Positions 3,296-59,870 of a stretch of 64,000 bases of DNA are shown here, piece after piece (the first letter of the stretch is position 1; each line of letters opens with the position of its first letter). This DNA comes from Octopus vulgaris. Taxonomy: Eukaryota. A program made the translations under genes and the position numbers. The notes below the pieces were generated by a model. That model was not told the DNA's origin, ran no database searches, and saw only the letters and a list, made by a program, of their open reading frames with translations. The stretch spans positions 103,602,001 to 103,666,000 of the forward strand of contig OX597815.1 of the NCBI GenBank assembly GCA_951406725.2. Direction: 5' to 3'.

Positions 3296-3342
<47 letters not shown>

Positions 3343-3349
3343 TCAAAAT

Positions 3350-3529
3350 AAGCAAATATAATGCTTACAACATTTAATAAAATGATATAGTACGAAACAA
3401 TTGTACCAAATTAACGGAGTCATTCTTGTTGCTTATTTTGGTTATAATCACCCCACAATTTTTTATGGATAACACCATACAAAATTCTGGTGCATCTAAA
3501 TTAAGTACCATATTCATTCGAATCTAAAT
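3350..3529 (+). mobile_element. PLE-like 3' end, 5'-truncated; same family as 25478-26320; carries the 3' half of a hammerhead
   Basis: ttacaacatttaataaaatgat..gtacGAAACaattGTAccaaatta..ggagtcattcttgttgctta matches 26245-26315 directly and 25494-25610 as reverse complement. Confidence 0.8.
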
Positions 3530-4100: not shown

Positions 4101-4257
4101 ACGGGCATGTTTCTATCTAACAAATTCTCTCACGAGATTTTGGTCTGCCCGGGTCTATAGTGAAAGGAACTTTCATTATAGGTACGGTGCAGTGAGACTG
4201 AATCTGGAACCATGTGGTCGGAAAGCAAGCATCGTACCACACAGCCACGCATGCGCC
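4101..4257 (-). mobile_element. SINE family A, 5' half
   Basis: Reverse complement ggcgcatgcgtggctgtgtggtacgatgcttgctttccgaccacatggttccagattcagtctcactg matches the family A head. Confidence 0.8.
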
Positions 4258-4479: not shown

Positions 4480-5277
4480 TATCAAGAACATAATGCCATA
4501 ATTTTGTGGTTATATTTTTATAAGTCTCTCCATGTGTCTTTCCCGTTTTACTTTTCTACATCTTGAAATTCCACCAAACAAACAACATGACCTTCTTTTC
4601 AGCCTACTCTTGTTTCACAACAGGTTCTGAAGTTGGGTGGAACGAAGCCACTGCTTCCTCTTGTTAGGTTTAGCAAAATAGATCCATTTTTCATCCCCAT
4701 TTAAAATTCGATGCTTAAAATGGGCGCCACAAGATTTTACCAGCAGTTGTTTACAATATTCGCACGCCGTTGAATCTGATCATTTTTAATTTCATGAGGA
4801 GCTTCTGGACAGCGCAGTTCACTCGATCAGATTCTGAAAACAATTTAAGAGTGTTTGTGCTTGGCTGTTGTTCAACCATTTCAAGCAAGACTTCATCTTC
4901 CATACTAGAAGGTCTCCCTGACCTTCAATTGTCTTTGAGGGAATTGTCTCCTTCTCTGAAACTTCTGAACCAGTTTTGTACACAAGTTTTCTGTTAGTTC
5001 CTAAGGAGTTCCACATCATTAAATTCTTTTGCCGCTGTCCTTGCACACAATTCTTTTTTCCACAGGTAGCATAAAATACCTCTAATTACAATTTTTTAAC
5101 TCATTATCGTGAAATAAAAAAGAATAAATGTGTATATGTTACATATAAAAATAAAGAAAAACAATTCAACAACGATTGGACAACAAGTTATATCAGATTA
5201 ATGATATAACATGTATATACAAGTTGCAAAAAATCATTAATAAAAATCCGGAAAAACTTTTGACTCATTGTGTGTAT
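4480..5277 (-). mobile_element. Degenerate mariner (Tc1/mariner) transposon with transposase pseudogene
   Basis: Minus strand: ATG at ~5104, HTH region WFRSFREGDNSLKD..RSGRPS (~4915-4972) and first catalytic motif NGDEKWIYF (4675-4701). Contains stops and frameshifts. Putative terminus next to TA at ~5275. Confidence 0.85.
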
Positions 5278-6531
5278 ATATATATATATATTTATATATA
5301 TATTGTATATACACACACACGTAACATTTTGATGACCGGGAGACTTCTAACTCCTTCCTGATAGCGCTAGAAAGCGTCCACATTCCACCGTGTAAACTTT
5401 TTCTCGGTGTATGTGGCTAATTCATAGATCTAGTAATTTAAGAAGGTATATAGTACGGTTTAGGAATAAAGTGTTATTGTGGGGAAATAACACTACGTAG
5501 AGGTATTTTACGCTGCCTGTGCAAAAAGACTGAGTGCAAGGGCACCTATCCAAAGGACGGGGGACGGACGGAACATATAAGGGGAATAGTTTTCTTGAGA
5601 GACAGCCGAGCACTATGCTAGCGTCAAGGGCAACACTACTGTTCTTAAATTTCTCGGAAACATTTCACGAGTGGAATATAGAGAAGAGTAGCCAACAGTA
5701 AATCTTGCTTCATGGAAGACGCACTTTTGTTTATTAAAGAAGAAGAACAATGAAATATATTTATTCGAACTGTGCTCGACACATCTGTAGTTTACTCTGC
5801 ATTAGAATATCACAAAACTATATCATGTTTCAAAGAATGAGAGAAAGACAAAGAGAAAGGGAGAGAAAGAGACTGATAAACAGAGGGATATTAATGATTG
5901 TGGGTGACTTTTTTCGAGGGTAATGGAACTGAGATTGCTAGGACTCGGAGTCTTGTTCATTTTGGATATCAGAATCTTCTTTCGCTCTTGGTGCTTATTC
6001 CTGCGTGAGTCTGATACAAAATACCTTCACTTATATATGTTTCATAGATATTATTAAATTAGTGGTGTGTTATCAGTATTTTACATCAATATTAAAAACT
6101 TTATTATATCATTTATATATACTTGAAAGTTACCTGTCATATGGAAATATACTTTGGCCGTTGGACGCCTTGGGTTATGCAGACCTATGGCACAAATAAG
6201 ATAATTATTAATTCACGTTTATCTAATTCCTTGGCGCTTATTGAAAATAATAAAATGAATACTGACTTTCAAAAGAAAAATATTACTCGATAATTCCTTC
6301 TGTTATTGTGTGTGAGGGGCAGAGAATTTTCTTTTAATCCTTAACTGCCACCAAGCCTAGTATGCGCAATCATGTTGCACATCTCATGTTAAGTCTCTCA
6401 GAACCTTTCTTTCGATTTCTCTCATCGTCATTCTATGCTAAGAGATATAAAAGAATTATGAATAAAACTAATTGAAATCGAATGGGATTTCCCAGCAACC
6501 AAGCATCTTTTTTAAATATCTATCAGTACAC

Positions 6532-15690: not shown

Positions 15691-15730
15691 GCTACGGATG
15701 TTTCGGTTTATTAGAACTCATCAGTACAGC
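15691..15730 (-). ncRNA. Degenerate minimal type I hammerhead
   Basis: Minus strand gctgta-CTGATGA-gttctaataaacc-GAAAC-atc-cgtagc. Core intact, short stem II (gtt/aac), stems I and III imperfect. Confidence 0.45.
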
Positions 15731-17745: not shown

Positions 17746-18614
17746 GACAGATATACAATGACACAGAAGTCCTTTTAGCATTTAAATATTTTTTTTTCTA
17801 TTTTGCTACTATTTCAATTCTTTTATTTTGAACTATGACATTATCAAAAGATGAGAAAATATAGGAACGTATGTGAATGCACGTGGTATGTTTAAAGAAA
17901 AAATAAATTATCGCTCTTCTAAACATGTCGCTTTTCAAACGATTTAAACCTACAGGCTCATTTGAAGATATCTCAAGGTCTGCACTGCCACACACCTCAG
18001 TGAAACACAACATTCTATTACCTTTCATTATCAACCTGATCCACAGGGTTCAATGCAGGATGCTGCAAAAGTAACTCCATCTGGCAGTATTCTATCTAAA
18101 GGTGTTTAAAATCTTATGACAAGAAAACTTTTCACTTGTCAGCGGTTCATAAAATTATCTGACGATGATAAATGTACATGGCTTGCGATGTAGTGTGAAC
18201 AGGTCGTTCAGCAATAGCCTTTGATACAGACTACGTTAAGAAGGGTTTATTTAGTGATGAATAAAACTTTTCTTTCATCTTGCGCTCACTGTCAACAGGT
18301 TTAAATGTGGAGAATGGGGTTATGATCGTTACTTTCACTTGCCAAAATTTACTGTTTGGCTTGGCTACACAAGTCATTTACTTGGCTCCTATTTGTCTAT
18401 TGATACTATTATAACAAAATATTCTTACTTGAAGAAACTGAAATAAGTTTCAGTACAAGACATAAAATGGAAAAGAATATTCTTCAGCACAATTCTATGT
18501 CAACCTGGTGCGCACCTACGCAAGTGTTTTACTGTGAAATGCTTACTTAATGTATAATTTCTAAACTGCTGCTGGGGAAGACATGAACCGACTTTGGTGA
18601 TACAAATGTCTAGA

Positions 18615-18816
18615 CAGTTCTGTATTTCAGAGATGAGGAATTATGTACACAATTTACATTAATTACAATTGACGGATATATTTGTCTTCAAATTGTTTGT
18701 TGTTAACACAACGTTTCGGCTGATATACCCTCCAGCCTTCATCAGGTGTTGCTTGGAATCGAACTCGGAATCATGGGGTTAGTAGACCGCACTCTTAACG
18801 ACTACGCAATATGCCC
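18615..18816 (-). mobile_element. tRNA-headed, hammerhead-bearing SINE (family H), left arm of an inverted dimer, internally deleted
   Basis: Minus strand: tRNA-like head gggcatattgcgtagtcgttaagagtgcggtctactaaccccatgattccgagttcgattcc (A and B boxes), followed by the HHR and tail aacaacaaac..ccgtcaattgtaa..cataattcctcatctc. Confidence 0.9.
18705..18750 (-). ncRNA. Minimal type I hammerhead ribozyme with intact core
   Basis: aacac-CUGAUGA-a-ggcug(gaggguauau)cagcc-GAAAC-GUU-guguu. Stem I 5 bp, stem II 5 bp, loopless palindromic stem III (AACGUU), as in PLE/retrozyme minimal HHRs. Confidence 0.85.
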
Positions 18817-18995: not shown

Positions 18996-19172
18996 TAACA
19001 ATAACAATAACAACAACAACAACAACAACAATAGCAATAATAATAATAACAACATCGAAAAATGCCTTAGGAATGAAGACCCAGGTTCGAAATTCCCCCA
19101 AGACACCTGGTGAAGACTGGAGGATATATCAGGCGATGAGGACAAATATCCGTCAATTGTAAATAATGTACA
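18868..19172 (+). mobile_element. Family H SINE, right arm of the inverted dimer; includes an (AAT/AAC)n tract and a damaged hammerhead
   Basis: taagagtgctggctactaaccccaatattccgggttcgattcc, (AAT)n at 18937-19053, then cgaaaaatgccttaggaatg..gacacCTGGTGAagactggaggatatatcagg (GAAA region deleted) and tail gaggacaaatatccgtcaattgtaaataatgtaca. Confidence 0.9.
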
Positions 19173-22669: not shown

Positions 22670-22817
22670 CGGGCTTCTTTCACTTTCCGTCTACCAAATC
22701 CACTCACAAGGCTTTGATCGGCCCGTGGCTGTAGTAGAAAACACTTGCCCAAGGTGCCATGCAGTAGGACTGAGTCGGTAAGCAAATTACTACTTACCAC
22801 ACATACACTCATGCACC
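22083..22817 (-). mobile_element. SINE family A, interrupted by TA/CA tracts and a short PLE-like insert (~22294-22430)
   Basis: Tail catgctggagcaccgcctttagtcgaaaaaatcgaccccaggac at 22117-22160 and head ttccgtctaccaaatccactcacaaggcttt..cacttgcccaaggtgcca at 22685-22817. Confidence 0.85.
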
Positions 22818-24460: not shown

Positions 24461-25477
24461 CGCACGCTGTGTTGTGGTTCACTGTTGTCTGTGCCGCTAT
24501 TGTCTACGTTGATTTTTCAAAGTATTTTTACATAGTTTTCATTTCATATATTTTGGTGATTCATTGTCTCCCATGGCTGGATTTATGATTTCACTAGGCT
24601 AATTCTATTCATAAAAATTTTAATTAGGAGTATTTCTTAAACGTTAGCTTCACATTTCAACAGCTTACCTGTTGAAATACATAACAGGAACTGAGAGGGA
24701 TATCGTAGAACAGAGAAATTGTGGGTGATACAAATAATTTGACATTATTTTTGAATTCTGCATGCAAAAACGTATGAGATACAGATATTCTTTTCCTTGG
24801 GACAAATTCTTTGTTGACCAATGTTATTCTTATCGTAGTTTACAAATCCAAGCATGAAAATGTTACTCAGCTTTGGACAGACGCCTCCTTTTCACACACA
24901 AACACATGCATTTATATATTAATGATGTACATAAATACATGGCAGTTATACATAATACTGCAGTACGCATAAAGTAAACCTATGCAGTCAAATATATTAA
25001 TATAACAAATTTTTAAAATGATAAAAACATACAATCAATGAAGAGACAAAAGAAACAGTAAGATGATACATGTTGATTTTATTAGGTATTTCTGTTTATT
25101 TAGAAACCAAAATGAAATTACGCATTTCTGTTTATTTAGAAACATACGATGAGCAGGTCAAACGCTAAACTTTAAATTTTACCTGATACAACCTTAATGT
25201 TGACACCGCCCCGCTCAATGCAGAAAATTTCTGTCTCACTATTGGCAAAAACTACCCATTCTTTTTTGGATTTTTAAACCTCTGTAACTTTTTCTGCAAT
25301 TTTTTTTCTCCACAGCATCATACATTCAAAGCAATGAGACTGGAAGGCTACATTATTATAGCTAATTTTCAGATTTTAACTTCCTTTTAAAAAGTGCATA
25401 TTTTGCGAATGGAAAAAAAAACTAGATCCCACACGCGCGCACACACACACACGTATATATATATATATATATATATA

Positions 25478-26320
25478 AGTTCAGCAAAAATTTAGATTCA
25501 AATGAATATGGTACTTAATTTAGATGCACCAGAATCTGGTATGGTGTTATCCATAAAAATCCGTGGGGTGATTATAATCAGAATAAGCAACAAGAATGAC
25601 TCCGATAATTATCTAGCAAAATTTGGGAACTAAAAACAAATAATATAGAATTCAACCCAAAATGGGATATAGTAAGAAGGGCGCAACCTTATAGAAATAG
25701 TAGGGATGGTTGTCAACTTTGTTCTATGGAAACTTATGAATTTTTGAAACATCAGAGTAATACAAATCTGTTGAATAACATCGTACAACTCGAACGTTTA
25801 AATACTTTAAATAATAATTTTCTGAGTATTCCTATATTTTTCAAATTTTAATTCTTTATAATCAAATAAGGACCACTTGACATTGACCTAGTTCTCTCAT
25901 CAAATAGTAGTAATTGGCATTTAGTAGTGACAATTGCTGTCCTCCACATGAAATCCTTTTATGGAACTCTGAAGCCCCCTTTACCCCATTTCTATAATTT
26001 GAAAATCTTTATTGCTTTCTTCAACCTATTCCTCACAACTTTACAGCAGTCTGGAACAACCAAATCTTAGTCAGTCAGTTGAGGGACTCCACTACCTCAT
26101 ATATTCTTAAAATTTAAATCCACATCTTTGTCTATATATCTACCTTCTCTATAATGTTGCCACTTGATTTGAAAATTTTTGTATTAATGGAAAACCTCTA
26201 TAATTGGCTGATGAGTACTCATCATCTTAAATATGTTGTAATACTTACAACATTTAATAAAATGATGTAGTACGAAACGATCTTACCAAATTACCGGAGT
26301 CATTCTTGTTGCTTATACTG
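25478..26320. mobile_element. PLE-like non-autonomous element with head-to-head inverted 3' ends
   Basis: 25494-25610 is the reverse complement of the family tail (cf. 3410-3529). 26201-26320 is the plus-strand HHR and tail. Confidence 0.7.
26201..26293 (+). ncRNA. Type I hammerhead with extended stem II
   Basis: taattgg-CTGATGA-[gtactcatcat..atgttgtaa tac ttacaacat..atgatgtagtac]-GAAAC-gatc-tTA-ccaaatta. One stem III mismatch; the 3390 copy retains GTA. Confidence 0.75.
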
Positions 26321-26321
26321 A

Positions 26322-26368
<47 letters not shown>

Positions 26369-27780: not shown

Positions 27781-28434
27781 GTTGGATAATTGGAATACCT
27801 TAAAATTTCAAACAAATTTATTTTAATATGGGGTAGGACTGCCTTTGGCATTAATTAGAGCTTGAATTCTTCGAGGTATGGACTCGTACCAAGTTTGAAA
27901 TATTTTCAATAGAATTTTTGTCCATTCTTCAGCCCTCCCACGAATTCCAGCTTTGTACAACTCTCGGCGAACAGTTTTTGTGGAATCTGGGTTCTAGAGA
28001 TGGTCATTAAGCTCTGCAGTAATTCTGGGAGCTGTACTATTGTGATCCTTTCTAACAATTCGCATAAAAGTCCGACGGTCCCTATCTGAAAGTTTTAGTT
28101 TTCTTCCGAAATTTTGTTTCGGCGAAGAGGTTTTTCTCTCTTTTTCAAATGCTGCCGTTACTTTTGAGACAGTATTTCTTGGTACAGCAAATATTTCGGT
28201 TGTTTTCATTACGCTAGCGCCTGCCATACGAGCACCAACAAATTGACGTCTTTGAAAGTCCGATAAATCTGTCATTTTAATTAATTTTAATTGCCTTTTT
28301 CTGATGATATCTGAAAAGAAACAGCAATTTTAGCCAAAAAACATAAAAATAAACAAGCTTTTGACGGTTTTATAGATATTTCAAAATTATGATGGTATGA
28401 TGCTAGGTGTTTCCGTTATTTTGTCCAACCCTTG
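27776..28434 (-). mobile_element. Internally deleted Tc1-like DNA transposon
   Basis: TIRs (aggggttggataattggaatacct / aggtgtttccgttattttgtccaacccttg) flanked by TA. ORF 27994-28275 (MTDLSDFQRRQFVGARMAGASVMKT..GRKLKLSDRDRR..STAPRITAELN) is a Tc1 paired-HTH N-terminus; the DDE domain is deleted. Confidence 0.9.
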
Positions 28435-43044: not shown

Positions 43045-43215
43045 TGTGTGTGTGTGTGCGTGTGTGTGTGTGCGTGTGTGTATACTACGGGTTTCTATCA
43101 GTTTCTGTCTACGAGCTTAGCAAAAGTCACTTGGCCGTGGTACTACGCAGTATGACTGAACCCGGAACCATTTGGTCCGGAAGCAAACGTCTTACTACAC
43201 AAACGCGCCTGGGCC
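42845..43215 (-). mobile_element. SINE family A, old, with an internal (TG)n tract
   Basis: Tail ttcttttacttgtttcagtca at 42852 and head tgaacccggaaccatttggtccggaagcaaacgtcttactacac at 43157-43200. Confidence 0.7.
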
Positions 43216-47076: not shown

Positions 47077-47300
47077 AAGGCGACAAACTGGTAGAATTGT
47101 TATCGCGCCGGGCAAAATGCATGGCGGCATTTCGCCCGTCTTGGCGTTATGTGTCCAAATGCCACTGGGGTTGAATTTGCCTTTCATCCTTTCGGAGACG
47201 ATAAAATAAGTTCCATTTAAGCACAGAAAGTTCCTTTTGAGCACAGTAAGTTCCATTTCAGAGCCCCCACCCCTGAACTTGTTGGCCTCGTGACAAATTT
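47077..47300 (+). mobile_element. SINE with a Meta-like domain
   Basis: ggcgacaaactggtagaattgttatcgcgccgggcaaaatgc..tttgcctttcatcctttcggagacgataaaataag. Confidence 0.75.
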
Positions 47301-47305
47301 TCAAT

Positions 47306-47740
47306 TGGATATGGAGGTTGGTCCGCATTTCCGTGAAGGTATAGGTCCTTAATCTATTCCTTCAACATGAATGCAACATTCAAAATACTGCCAATTTACT
47401 GCCTGGTTTTACCTGGTATTATACTTAAGGACCTATACCTTCACAGAAGTACGGACCAACTTCCATACCCACTGGAAGAAGATGAGCTGGGAACTTTATT
47501 CTCCTGTCTTTATTCTTCTGTCTATCTATTTCTATCTCTATCTACTCTTTTATTCTTTATTCTTCTATCTACAATTTTATTCCTTTATAAACTATGAATG
47601 CTCTGTCTAGAACTTTCATGCATACTCACCTTCTCTCGGATAACGGAATACTCAGTGTATATAGAGATGCTACCCTATCACTTGGGATAACACCACGTAA
47701 AAAGAATTGTGCGGTAGAGTCCTAAACCTCTAAACATCTA
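47306..47740. mobile_element. PLE-like repeat with a short inverted 5' arm; same family as 51038-51320
   Basis: 47306-47352 is the reverse complement of 47425-47471. Body gaagtac.gaccaac.tccata.ccactgga.aagatgag is shared with 51060-51100. Confidence 0.7.
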
Positions 47741-47789: not shown

Positions 47790-48436
47790 GATAGATTCGT
47801 TCTACGAACCTAGGAAACTTTAAATTGCATAATGCTATCTAGCTATCAGCGGTTTCAAAGTTAATATATGTTACAATACTTAAAGTAAAAAAATATGAAT
47901 CCTAAACATAGACCTGGAAAAATAATATGGATCTTCCTTCAATGTTAAAATTAATTAAAGCAGGAAATTCGTCTCTTTTAGATATGTATTTTCCAGTAAA
48001 GCATAAAAACAAGATTGGTAATAGATAACTAAAAACATTGAAGTATGATACGGCTGCTGCACTATTATGAAGAACCTTATCACTAGTATGCATCAAGAGG
48101 ATCCCACACCCAGTTGTAATTGTCAAGACCCTGAAGCTTGCCCACTAGATAAGGCGTGTAATGATAAAATACATAATCCACGAGGAAGAAGTTACAGCAA
48201 CGCTTCATGATAACGTAACTGAAAAGAAGATTTTGTACGAAGGCGACTTCAAAAGATCTTATACAAACCACTAGCATTCTTTCCGACACATCGACATAAG
48301 TAAAGCCACTAAGATGGCTATCCACATACGGAATTTCAAGATCAACTACACGACGCCACATACGATCAAATAGAGAATTGTAGAGAAATCCATACCATAT
48401 GTGAACGTATTTAAGAAATGCAACTCATGTGATCGG
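47790..48436 (+). pseudogene. Penelope-like element (Naiad-like) linker and GIY-YIG endonuclease fragment
   Basis: Translation KIIW...SCNCQDPEACPLDKAC...EGDFKRSYTNH*HSFRH..ATKMAIHI..IK*RIVEKSIPYVNVFKKCNSC. CxC-CPL-C knuckle, FK.RY.NH..SF and CxxC motifs are present; stops and frameshifts throughout. Confidence 0.85.
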
Positions 48437-48975
48437 CCATTCGTTTTAGCTCTAAGAATTCCACCGCATCACTTTCGAGGTCCAAAATTTTCTTTGCGAA
48501 AACCTCTCCAAATTGAGCAGCTCTCTGGTAGACTTTAGACTTCTCTCCGTTGAATTCTACAACTAGTTTAATTATGGCTTGTGCAGTGAAAGGAGATGTA
48601 ACTTAAGTTTTCTCTCTTTCCTTTTTTTTTCCATTTTTAATCACCCTTCCAACTTTCTCATGAACTTCCTCTTTCTTTCACGTTTCTATTTTCGTGTTTT
48701 CTCATCGTTCTGATTTTCAAATAGAACAGCTCATGTGGTTCGAGCCTTAAGATTGCTTGGAAACACAAGGAACATTATAAAAACCTACCCAGCTATGTGT
48801 CTTCACGGCAAAAAATTATTCGTAGTTCTTATTTCTATACTGTATTTATCAAATGATTTTTATCTCTCACTAGATAGAGTATATATTTTTGTTAATATTA
48901 CCTCAATGGAGTAGTAAACTATATACATATATATATATATATATATATAGTTTATAGCTACAGAGATTATAGCCA

Positions 48976-49927
48976 GTTATTTGATATACCAATTTACATA
49001 TTAAACGCATTCCTATGACTCGTATGTAAATATTAATGACTTGTAAGCACGTGATATTTCGTTATGCAAGCATAATATACTATAATGTATATTAAATGTT
49101 TTTTTATGTGTCAACACCAAGTTCTACTGCGTTAGCAGTCCTGTTTACATTATTTTGTTAAGGTTATTTCTACAGAAATTATAGCCAGCATTGACTTTTG
49201 CTACAACGTTTCGTATCGAGACGCCAGATGTAAAAAAAAACCAAAGAACAATTAGATCGGAGACAAAAATTCGTATTGAGTTTATATACCATACTTCGGT
49301 GGGTTTTGTCCCTTCATCAGCACCCATCTGACTCACTCTTACCTCCGAACACATTGCTTATACAGCCACTGCATACAGCGATGTTAAGTTATTGGATATA
49401 CCAATTTACATATTAAACAAAATAATGCTAAAAAATAATGTAAAAAAGCACTGCTAATGTAGTAGAACGTGGTGTTGACTCATAAAAGCATTTGATATAC
49501 TTTATAATACATTATACTTGCATAACGAAATACCACGTGCCTACAAGTCGTTAATTTTTACATACCAACCCTAGGAATTCTTTTAATATGTAAATTGGTA
49601 TATTCAATAACTTAACAACGCTATGTGCGGTGGCTACATAAGTAATGTGTACGGAGGCAAGAATAAGTTAGATGGGTGCTGATGAAGGGACAACCCCCAC
49701 CCTACGAAATATGGCATATAACTCGTTACCGATTTTTGTCTACGATCTCATTTGTTTACATCTGACATCTCGATACGAAACGCTGTGGCAAAAAAATTTC
49801 TGTAGAAATAACCTTAACAAAATAATGTAAACAGGACTACTAGCGCAGTTGAATGTGGTGATGGCTCATAAAAACATTTAATATATTTCATAGAATATTA
49901 GGCTTGCACAACGAATTACAACGTGCA
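48976..49927. mobile_element. Inverted pair of greater-than-unit-length, circularly permuted ~390-410-bp monomers carrying CTGATGA cores
   Basis: Left arm (minus, 48976-49418) repeats its end with period 412. Right arm (plus, ~49415-49927) repeats with period ~387. The arms are reverse complements in a different register. Confidence 0.85.
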
Positions 49928-50542
49928 TATATATATGTAATTTCTCAAAGATGAATACATGTGTATACTGTCTAATGTTTCGTAAGGATCCATTGTACTT
50001 AAGTAAAATCAAGATGATGATATAACAAAGTAGTATTTAAACAAGGCGACTACTGAAAATCAGTTTAGGTAAAGAGATACAATACATATGCAACGTATTG
50101 TTTCCTTGGACTTATTTATATATGTTGGGGGGTGAGTGTGTGTATGCGCGCGCGCACAAAAAGTGAGATTTTGGAAATATACACATTTATAAAGCCTCCT
50201 GGATATAACATAAGGCAACTTACTGCACTTAAAACGAGTTGAAATGTAAAATTTGAACACCGTCCTTTTGGATGCAAATGCCATACATAAAAGCGTTACG
50301 AAATTTGGATGTAATATTTAAAATAGTGAATACGAGCAACATAACGAATACTTTACGAGCGTGATCAATATAGTTATATAAACACAGAATGTAAGTACAG
50401 TAAATAAAATGCATTGTACCAGTTTTTAATCATTTCTGTATTGTTTATGAAATAATTCGGTGTTATTTTATGTTAGCTACGAGTGGAATTTGAATAGTCT
50501 CCTTCTAGTGACAAAAGCAACATGTATACGTCTCTCTCATTT

Positions 50543-50620: not shown

Positions 50621-51037
50621 CATATATATATATATATGTATGTATATATGTCTGTACATATACATATGTGTGTGTGGGATTGTGAGTGTATGTGGGTGCG
50701 TGTGTGCATACGTGTGTATATGTGTATGTGTATATGTGTGTGTGTATTTACAAAATCTCTTTGAAGAATTACTAGATTTGAATACGAAAGTAGCCAAACA
50801 ATGCAAATACTATTCACAGCTTCTTTATATTTTTATAAAAATAATATTGACATTAAACTACGTGCAATACCAGCAATGATTGTGATGTTCTTGCTAGCTG
50901 CTGCCAGGATAATTTTTCGTCCCACCCACATACACAATAAATTTTTAACATGGCACGTTAAGGAAGGATTTTACCTCGAAGAAAACTGCAATATCTCTGA
51001 TGGCAATGGCATATATATATATATTTATGGGATTTTA

Positions 51038-51320
51038 ATTAAAAGTCTGTACTTTCATGGAAGTACCGACCAACATCCATATCCACTGGAAAAAGATGAG
51101 TTGTGAACATCATTTTCCTGCCTATATTCTTCTAACTAATTTTACTCTTTATTATATTTTACTCCTTTATTCTTCTGTTTATTTCCTTATAAACTGTGAA
51201 TTTTATTCGTTTTAAATTGTAAAAATATTCATACCTTGTCTCTGATGACGGAATACCCCGTGTAAGAACATGCTAACCTACCTCTTCGGTTATCCTAGAA
51301 ACTGCCTCAAGACTTGAAAT
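51038..51320 (+). mobile_element. PLE-like repeat with a degenerate hammerhead at 51238-51313
   Basis: gtct-CTGATGA-cggaataccccg...cggttatccta-GAAAC-tgcctca-agac. Stem I is gtct/agac. Confidence 0.65.
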
Positions 51321-55423: not shown

Positions 55424-55835
55424 GCCGTAGGCCTATTTGTTCTTTCCCAAATAAAACAACACTTCTCCAAACTCTCCGGAGGTATCTACAGAGATGATGC
55501 ACTTCTTGCATTATCTGGATTATCTCGACCTTCAGTTGACGCACCAAGAAAGCTCTCCCATAAACTCTTTAAGAATTATAACTTAAGTATCTTATTCAAA
55601 AACAACACTAAATTCGCCAATTTCTTAGACTTACGCTAGACTTAAATACAAATTTATATCACCCTTTTCATAAACCCAATCAATCATTAAAGTATATCTA
55701 CTTCCTATCAAATCAGACTAGAATGCCCTTAATAGTATAGTCACAGGCATTTCTATCAGTATCTGCTAATGAAGACATTTTTATCAATCATACCCAATAT
55801 TAAATTCAAGCTATCCAGATAAGTTGTTTCCGTGA
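55424..55835 (+). pseudogene. Penelope-like element reverse transcriptase fragment (Naiad-like)
   Basis: AVGLFVLSQIKQHFSKLSGGIYRDDALLALS..NFLDL/LDLNTNLYHPFHKPNQSLKYI..SN. Catalytic YRDD at 55487-55498, followed by FLD and KPN motifs. Frameshifted. Confidence 0.9.
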
Positions 55836-55839
55836 AAAG

Positions 55840-55968
55840 TTCTTCTTCTTCTTCTTCTTCTTCTTCTTCTTCTTCTTCTTCTTCTTCTTCTTCTTCTTCT
55901 TCTTCTTCTTCTTCTTCTTCTTCTTCTTCTTCTTCTTCTTCTTCTTCTTCTTCTTCTTCTTCTTCTTC
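55840..55968. repeat. (TTC)43 pure trinucleotide repeat
   Basis: Direct reading of the sequence. Confidence 0.95.
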
Positions 55969-56149
55969 GAAAAATATCTTAGGAATGAGAACCCAGGTGC
56001 GAAATTTCCCCCAAACACCTGATTGAAGGCTGGAGGGTATATCAACTGAAATGTTGGGTTAATAACAAACGAGATGAGGACAAATATCTATCAAGTGTAA
56101 ATAATCTAAATAATATACATAATTCCCCATCTTTCAAATATAAAACTGT
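55967..56149 (+). mobile_element. Family H SINE 3' part (hammerhead tail), degenerate
   Basis: cgaaaaatatcttaggaatgagaacccagg..aacacCTGATTGAaggctggagggtatatcaactGAAAtgttgggtt..gaggacaaatatc matches 19056-19172 and 18615-18750. Confidence 0.9.
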
Positions 56150-58895: not shown

Positions 58896-59057
58896 GCGCA
58901 GAAGTGACTGTGGGGTAAGAAGCTTGCCTCCCAACCACATGATTCTGAGTTCAGTCTCACTGTGTGGCACCTTGGCCAAGTGTCTTCTATTATAGCCTGA
59001 GCCCGACCAAAACCTTGTGAGTGGATTTGGTAGACGGAAACTGAAGGGAGTCTGTTG
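58896..59057 (+). mobile_element. SINE family A, 5' half
   Basis: gcgcagaagtgactgtggggtaagaagcttgcctcccaaccacatgattctgagttcagtctcactgtgtggcaccttggccaagtgtcttc..gtgagtggatttggtagacggaaactga. Confidence 0.9.
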
Positions 59058-59078
59058 TATATGTATATATATATTCAC

Positions 59079-59870
59079 AGCAAGACATAGGGAAGCCAAA
59101 ACAGCAAACGAACTTAAAAACCAGAAAAAAGAACAGAAATTATCTGATTGGCAGGAGAAGGCGTTGCATGGTAGATTCACAAAGATATTTGCAGCAAGTA
59201 GTAATAGTGGACATGGATATGGATGCAGAAAAGAAAGCTGGAGTGTGAGACAGAAAGTTTGTTAGTAGCTGCACAGGATCAAACTTTAAGAACTAATTGG
59301 ATAAAAGCCAAGATAGACAAAATCCAAGTAGATTCCCAGTGTAGGATTATGCAAATCAAGAGAGGAAAGTGTTATTCATATAGAAAGTAAATGCACCATG
59401 CTGGCACAGAGAGAATACAAGAAAAGACATGTCAATCTAGGGAGAGTTATCTACTGGAATGAACATGAACATGAACCTAGAAAAGTACTAGAAAGTAAGA
59501 AATACAAGATTTTGTGGGGCATTAACATTCAGACCGACAGAGTAATAAAAGCTAGAAGGCCTGATTTAGTAGTAGTAAATAAAGAGAATAGAACGTGCCA
59601 GATATTTGATTTTACAGTCCCAAATGATACAAATATGAATATGAGACGTATAGAAAAGATAGCAAAGTACCAGAACCTAGCCATTTAATTATAGAGACTA
59701 TGGAAAGTGTAGGTAAAATTTACCCCAGTTGTTATAGGTGTATTGGGAACTATCCCTAAATATCTGCACAGATAGATAGAGGAAATAGGCATAAAATCCT
59801 GTTTAGTACAACACCAGAAAGCAGTGTTATTAGTGACAGTAAGCATACTTCGGAGGGTTCTTCCAATGTT
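59079..59870 (+). pseudogene. R4/Dong-type non-LTR retrotransposon C-terminus (zinc knuckle and restriction-like endonuclease)
   Basis: WQEKALHGRF..ETESLLVAAQDQTLRT..CR/CK.REESVIHIESKC..YKKRH..KILW..IQTDRVIKARRPDLVVVNKE..FDFTVP..EKIAKYQNL..PVVIGVLGTIP. Frameshifts and stops present. Confidence 0.9.

Follow-up and report, generated by a model that had tools for sequence, protein, structure and literature searches.

A decayed hammerhead-bearing element in the Octopus vulgaris genome, best read as a non-coding unit inserted head-to-head by Penelope-like machinery

A 64-kb stretch of the Octopus vulgaris genome (hereafter the window) harbors two head-to-head arms of a 386-412-bp unit, which are about 14% apart and have TA tracts on both sides. 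We consider it slightly better than an even bet (roughly 55%) that they are the remains of a decayed, non-autonomous and non-coding hammerhead element that was mobilised by a Penelope-like element (PLE) and inserted into a TA microsatellite from an uncleaved linear multimer, with both target strands acting as primers. The best reading of its class is the known kind of non-LTR retrozymes or of units derived from PLE pseudo-LTRs, a placement that one decayed copy does not settle alone.

Self-alignment resolved a left arm of 444 bp on the minus strand (49418->48975; period 412, 1.08 units) and a right arm of 510 bp on the plus strand (49420->49929; period 386, 1.32 units), the latter carrying its first stretch (49420-49543) again at 49806-49929 (124 bp, 78% identity). 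The 5' ends of the arms abut at 49418/49419. The initial annotation had described about 1.07 and 1.3 monomers with different start points, joined head-to-head near 49415, and our alignments bear this out. All unit positions given below refer to unit c, in which position 1 is 49418 (Table 1). Both periods lie within 150-450 bp and the GC content of the unit (0.33-0.34) is below the 45-50% retrozyme limit, while the CpG observed/expected ratio reaches 1.15 in both arms (vs 0.81 in the masked window). The window itself is AT-rich (30-37% GC) and dense in microsatellites. Both ends of the element adjoin TA tracts, a point weakened by the abundance of such tracts across the window, and the sole candidate for a target-site duplication is an 11-base low-complexity match (49926-49936 vs 48926-48936). 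A search of the window with nhmmer --max detected no further copies of the unit (next best E 2.9), and unit sequence was not found to extend into the flanks (48430-48949 and 49930-50500). A satellite array is not indicated either, as fewer than three units are present, in two orientations, and TRF lists no array of such a period here.

Table 1. Coordinates of the two-armed insertion, its hammerhead-like motifs and the PLE remnants of the window.
Feature	Position	Strand	Remarks
Left TA tract, likely target site	48920..48949	.	TRF, 15 TA copies
Outermost short piece of left arm, unit positions 231-258	48950..48976	-	secure core 48958-48976 = positions 231-249
32-bp repeat of unit positions 1-32	48975..49006	-	31/32 identical to 49387-49418
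Unit c, complete, 412 bp	49007..49418	-	coordinate reference
Second GAAACG motif, left arm	49205..49227	-	without A9, without helix II; fold z 0.03
Decayed type I hammerhead, left arm	49276..49326	-	CUGAUGA 49320-49314; predicted cut after 49283
Head-to-head junction 49418/49419	49416..49432	.	~3 bp microhomology; right arm start = unit position 250-263
Partial unit a, positions ~250-412, opens right arm	49420..49580	+	self-alignment
Unit b, positions 1-375, closes right arm	49581..49929	+	without 13- and 14-bp segments found in unit c; 4-bp insertion in hammerhead
Decayed type I hammerhead, right arm	49671..49727	+	core boxes intact; predicted cut after 49720
Second GAAACG motif, right arm	49762..49784	+	without G8, A9, U16.1, helix II; fold z 1.03
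A/C-rich block, 44 bp, identical in units b and c	49795..49838	+	candidate cis signal (inferred)
Right TA tract	49926..49936	.	11 bases common to 48926-48936
Hydra-type PLE 3' remnant between TA tracts	25455-26345	hammerhead +	endonuclease C-terminus 25582-25779; hammerhead 26208 with long helix II
Hydra-type PLE linker + endonuclease remnant (CxCx5C), frameshifted	47935-48433	+	51% identical to Octopus vulgaris predicted protein CAI9737591.1; 43 relatives (of 10 looked up, one with a name)
Hydra-type RT remnant, then GAA repeat and further segment	55427-55842, 55969-56149	+	segment 82% identical to 18614-18750 (-)

Overlooked in the initial annotation, the outermost piece of the left arm (19-27 bp, extending the element to 48958 or 48950) ties the two arms together. 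It corresponds to unit positions 231-249, or up to 258, since 48950-48976 and 49161-49187 are identical at 23 of 27 bases (18/19 in the core; 0/300 shuffles as good), with three differences among the outermost eight bases, where the match to the unit is poor. Local alignment places the start of the right arm at unit position 250, or at 263 should its first 13 bases represent a small duplication, and its end at position 375 of the following unit. In ribozyme-sense order the pieces hence read unit c (1-412), 1-32, a 198-bp gap, 231-249, and then the right arm (250-412, followed by 1-375), which amounts to a colinear template of ~1200 bases (~2.9 units) whose upstream part is flipped. By our estimate, such arm adjacency would arise by chance with odds between about 1 in 15 and 1 in 100, according to the tolerance allowed. 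Judged from these alignments, the arms are consecutive stretches of one colinear template. As the arms adjoin on the template, their two start points amount to one breakpoint and one truncation, and do not constitute independent evidence for a circle. Since each arm passes through all unit positions with the same head-to-tail junction, a short tandem or a circle must have predated the insertion. The right arm ends ~37-45 bp before the position at which the main body of the left arm starts, so the opposite arm order is also possible.

Two sequence features accompany the breakpoints. The 32-bp repeat shares a 2-bp microhomology with the short outermost left piece, and may be either a PLE-type tail or a remnant beside the 198-bp gap (positions 33-230). 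The 5' part of the A/C-rich block is the point to which both the short left piece and the right-arm start map. Each unit has two instances of a similar A/C-rich word, AATAAC followed by TTAAC (49606-49616 and 49807-49818 on the plus strand; 49393-49383 and 49168-49157 on the minus strand), and in the left arm the 3' ends of both pieces lie at or beside words of this type. By analogy with the A/C-rich start site reported in PMC11167929, we regard it as a candidate start signal for reverse transcription.

We reason that a borrowed Penelope-like reverse transcriptase (RT) and GIY-YIG endonuclease would have inserted the element into the TA microsatellite, a mechanism drawn from this single locus. 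A tandem unit array would have been transcribed into an RNA of at least three units, uncut at its hammerheads, and both strands of the target would have been nicked. Synthesis of the right arm may then have begun from the bottom strand at unit position 375 and run for 1.3 units, down to 250-263, while the left arm would have been started from the top strand just upstream (at 249-258) and extended in the opposite genomic orientation. Positions 33-230 could have been lost through an RT jump or by a later deletion at the 2-bp microhomology. The two cDNA ends would finally have been joined head-to-head, and the copies left to decay. The purified PLE protein is described as cutting and extending both strands, preferring AT-rich DNA and mainly using uncleaved RNA (PMC11167929); inverted 5'-truncated arms and 30-40-bp extensions are documented for PLEs (PMC8557442; PMC3846280), and Hydra and Naiad PLEs are described as inserting into (TA)n. 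Twin priming is the model put forward for L1, in which two inverted fragments stem from one RNA (PMC2837659); among the papers on twin priming found with Penelope as a search term, titles and abstract openings held nothing on the PLE mechanism. Self-priming by fold-back, as proposed for PLEs in PMC3846280, was discarded, given that the junction is not a palindrome and ~160 bp separate the symmetric arms.

An internal control is available, as the window contains three remnants of Hydra-clade PLEs (25.5-26.3 kb, 47935-48433 and 55427-55842). The first bears an open reading frame (profile E 1e-12) and a well-folded hammerhead (z -4.75), and a solo copy of it lies at ~3342-3528. Its inverted arm (25491-25610) aligns with 3409-3528 in the solo copy at 92.5% identity and its other arm with the same copy as far as 3436 (92.3%), and the two overlap by ~28-37 bases on the template. 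An ordinary PLE in this genome thus has the same adjacent-arm flip, and this geometry was found at both of the loci examined closely in the window (2/2). The initial annotation had taken two different start points, each followed by over one unit of sequence, as a sign of reverse transcription around a circular template; with arms adjacent on one colinear template, and an ORF-bearing PLE remnant of the same geometry in the window, this argument finds no support. The broader label of a retrozyme-like element fared better, in that the non-coding ~400-bp hammerhead unit and a template longer than one unit are retained, while circular copying draws no support from the start points. The fragment at 47935-48433 ends ~500 bp from the element, with unrelated DNA and a TA tract between them, and a link between the two was rejected, as no shared sequence was found. 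The relatives used for these remnants (85 full-length among the 120 matches listed) carry the motifs described for the Hydra clade (DKT 82/85, CxCx5C 84/85, RWK 64/85). In a published table, 190 PLE families account for 6.83% of the O. vulgaris genome (PMC13282606).

The window holds further repeats and motifs. The stretch at 18614-18750 (-) has a minimal hammerhead-like motif at 18745 (-), and a further partial copy of it lies at 19057-19131. A two-copy family (47414-47689 and 51028-51292, 72% identity) that includes a further head-to-head inverted pair (47300-47352 and 47425-47477, 87%) and has CTGATGA at 51242 in one copy is possibly another PLE 3' end, and CTGANGA motifs with short hairpin-like stretches at 15724 (-), 12683 (-), 13493 (-) and 10015 (+) are possible decayed PLE ribozymes. 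Two more inverted pairs were recorded at 112-241 / 351-472 (75%) and 5036-5084 / 5498-5544 (82%). The dispersed short repeats at 1811-1956, 4109-4244, 22671-22773, 43124-43201 and 58898-59045 form one family, probably a SINE. We also presume that the open frames at 27997-28329 (-) and 59332-59685 (+) resemble the N-terminus of a Tc1-type transposase and the C-terminal restriction-like endonuclease of a LINE, respectively.

The hammerhead in the unit is real but decayed, and of type I. One CTGATGA occurs per strand, at 49320-49314 (-) and 49679-49685 (+), exactly where it had first been placed, and each arm combines CUGAUGA with a GAA(A/G) box, a near-palindromic helix III and a helix I of 5-7 bp. 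Residues follow the hammerhead numbering. The left copy is damaged by a G at A15.1 and a G-A mismatch at the base of helix I, its helix III being near-palindromic; in the right copy helix I has 7 bp with one unpaired G, helix II has 4 bp with extra bases before GAAA, and helix III is a palindrome of 5+1+5. A descriptor written after the motif had been seen (core boxes, helix I >=4, helix II >=2, helix III >=4) matched both arms but not one of the 5000 shuffles made from each unit; its only matches in the window were the two arms (shuffled windows: no matches in 29/30 and two in 1/30), and it fails to detect the other hammerhead at 26208. Rfam gave no matches at gathering score in the 64 kb, and at E<=10 around the locus no hammerhead family was among the 45 and 5 matches. 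At -6.0 and -4.4 kcal/mol, the hammerhead folds are 4-6 kcal/mol less stable than the minimum folds (-11.7 and -8.2), and neither region surpasses its shuffles in folding stability (z 0.43 and -0.37); the initial annotation had described the ribozyme folds as degenerate. That annotation had also listed a second motif in each arm, which is indeed present in both; as a ribozyme we rejected it, since its GAAA box is there but A9 and helix II are absent from both copies, and by its sequence it would be at most a relic. The idea of the unit as an old dimer of two subunits was dropped, because the spacing of the hammerhead-like motifs differs from that of the AATAAC motifs. With a single damaged hammerhead per strand and no two consecutive ribozymes (a property of this copy, not of the family), the locus has no means of releasing a monomer by double cleavage. 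For an RNA transcribed across the two arms (48950-49929), ~305 arm-to-arm base pairs are predicted; such a read-through RNA would fold into a long hairpin and might be a source of double-stranded RNA.

The strongest alternative, which we nonetheless hold to be rather improbable, is that the template was a covalently closed monomer circle (a retrozyme circRNA), around which RT proceeded for more than one turn from each target strand. In its favor, each arm exceeds one unit and runs across the hammerhead cut site, the main body of the left arm stops 32 bp past one turn, and an equal divergence of the three copies is statistically compatible with the data (p 0.096). The unit length resembles that of mussel retrozymes (350-390 bp), which accumulate as circles (PMC7229834), and more-than-unit reverse transcription from circles has been proposed for PLEs (PMC4209133) and for retrozymes. 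Against the circle stand the adjacent, hence not independent, start points, the hammerhead folds well above the minimum, the lack of any arm end at the predicted cut site (unit position 136), the 13- and 14-bp indels by which the copies differ and their mildly unequal divergence. When folded as circles, the sense units showed no gain in stability over their shuffled versions (z -0.76 and +0.73, with 60 shuffles for each), a result that is weak for the ancestor as the copies are decayed; the antisense strands (49007-49418 and 49420-49805), folded likewise, were more stable than shuffles (z -2.79 and -2.01; 60 shuffles each). The preference of the purified PLE protein for uncleaved RNA and its extension of both nicked strands (PMC11167929) count on the same side. 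There is also a difficulty of priming. PLE RTs are not known to have RNase H; on the assumption that they lack it, after 1.3 turns a circular template would be fully paired with cDNA, so that priming just ahead of the first RT should be harder than on a linear multimer. In terms of simplicity, the uncleaved linear multimer does at least as well as the circle in accounting for the locus, and we favor it by about 2.5 to 1.

Divergence between the copies bears on the age of the arms. Unit c and the right unit differ in 47 of 342 aligned columns (27 transitions, 20 transversions), with another 35 gap columns, and this 14% divergence between the arms rules out an assembly duplicate; an assembly artefact was rejected on the same grounds. 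Private substitutions in 110 columns number 9 in a, 13 in b and 4 in c, a weak inequality (chi-square p 0.096; P(smallest <=4 of 26) 0.107), and the arm vs arm comparison yields p 0.051. With the tails added post hoc, the left-arm copies carry 5 private changes in 174 columns and the right-arm copies 24 in 252 (p 0.0098). The inequality leans towards unlike template units, and two insertions of different age fit too. Tests for purifying selection on units b and c gave a longest identical run of 44 (permutation p ~0.04, one of three statistics tried), p 0.06 for the top three runs and p 0.5 for dispersion.

These figures also lend something to a history that we judge quite unlikely, in which the arms acquired their orientation secondarily, either because a partial tandem with all its units in sense orientation underwent a later inversion between 5-bp inverted ends or because a younger left arm was inserted against an older right arm. 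Beyond the fewer private changes of the left arm, the flipped block (48950-49418) has complementary 5-mers at its two ends, the left piece is a poor match to the unit over its outermost eight bases, and the PLE endonuclease is reported to be able to cut its own pseudo-LTR (PMC11167929). A later inversion, however, requires one break exactly at the 5' boundary of the element, two insertions give no account of the left piece continuing the start of the right arm, and the control at 25.5-26.3 kb reached the same geometry with no need of such a history.

Evidence of coding capacity was sought with Hydra-clade proteins and Pfam. A frameshift-tolerant profile of the Hydra-type endonuclease scored 20-25 on the four arm strands (null ~21; 4-21 of 40 shuffles as high), compared with 166 and 101 for two controls, and the full-length Hydra profile reached -3.5 bits at best on the unit (46/100 shuffles as good). 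Pfam gave one sub-threshold match in six sense frames (E 0.029), and the same library recognised 0/10 Hydra-type endonuclease matches. The 85 full-length queries produced one match to the unit (E 0.042). A putative remnant with 7 of 9 residues of the Hydra endonuclease motif (tblastn, E 0.55) was rejected, the profile tests being at chance level. Hence, the profile searches revealed no Hydra-clade coding remnant in the unit, and the single ORF of PLE RT and GIY-YIG endonuclease left no signal in the element and a clear one in the three remnants elsewhere in the window. None of 15 candidates scored in a word-index protein search with a degenerate fragment, a phage collection gave no match, motif searches in two literature supplements had no matches, and no partner PLE sharing the unit sequence was found in the window. 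The least probable of the readings, that the unit is simply the last 400 bp at the 3' end of an autonomous PLE, left as truncated partial tandems with no independent short family, draws on the standard PLE character of the hammerhead, the tail-length 32-bp repeat, the inverted arm and the TA target, on the dual minimal hammerheads described 100-700 bp apart on opposite strands (PMC4209133) and on the PLE remnants common in the window, but random 5' truncation would not yield the same head-to-tail junction and constant period in both arms, the unit has neither coding remnant nor extension into the flanks, and the neighboring PLE fragment is set apart from it.

The PLE-type flip of a non-coding hammerhead unit within a TA tract is in keeping with a link between PLEs and retrozymes. 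Published work notes that retrozymes resemble PLE pseudo-LTRs and proposes a PLE origin and mobilisation for the non-LTR kind (bioRxiv 10.64898/2026.07.22.740005); PLEs have thus been put forward as the retrozyme helper, and the inverted structures of PLEs have been called unexplained (bioRxiv 10.64898/2026.07.22.740005; PMC8557442). A more far-reaching proposal, which we regard as doubtful, is that the element belongs to an undescribed cephalopod retrozyme family with the full PLE signature, that PLE inversions arise from adjacent priming on both strands, and that the RNA here was a circle read more than once per strand. If true, a new retrozyme family would supply structural, as opposed to phylogenetic, evidence that PLE machinery moves retrozymes. 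Arm adjacency offers a simple genome-wide criterion for separating twin priming from self-priming, and linear multimers from circles.

Among known systems, the element is like metazoan non-LTR retrozymes in its apparently non-coding unit of ~400 bp, which has a low GC content (33-34%), a single type I hammerhead and a head-to-tail arrangement (PMC7229834; bioRxiv 10.64898/2026.07.22.740005), in its co-occurrence with PLEs and in a unit length near that of the mussel retrozymes. It is unlike them in having no two consecutive intact hammerheads, no predicted stable self-paired sense circle, and PLE-type inverted arms (the word 'inverted' is absent from the main text of PMC7229834, which does not name cephalopods either). 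A literature search that reached few subscription papers found no report of octopus retrozymes.

With Hydra-clade PLEs (Hydra-1_Obim, Penelope-13_HM) it shares the TA target, the palindromic helix III (tabulated for Hydra PLE ribozymes in File S2 of PMC8557442), the inverted 5'-truncated copy at the 5' end and, if the 32-bp repeat is a tail, the 30-40-bp extension (PMC8557442), and remnants of this clade lie in the same window. Unlike these PLEs, the unit is devoid of RT or endonuclease sequence and its hammerhead differs from the listed Hydra-1_oBim motif; none of eight unit motifs (9-16 bases) was found in the PMC8557442 supplement. The minimal PLE hammerheads of PMC4209133 likewise have an extra base after A9, a palindromic helix III, thought there to suit dimer folding, and opposite-strand motif pairs a few hundred bp apart, whereas their helix II has 6-8 bp (2-4 bp here) and the helix III described here is longer (4-5 bp) and begins A-U-A-U. 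Finally, the locus parallels L1 twin-priming inversions (PMC2837659) in its two opposed fragments of one RNA, adjacent on the template and joined in the middle by their 5' ends, and departs from them in having neither a poly(A) tail nor an L1 endonuclease site, in its tandem-unit template and TA-repeat target, and in its probable mobiliser, a PLE instead of a LINE.
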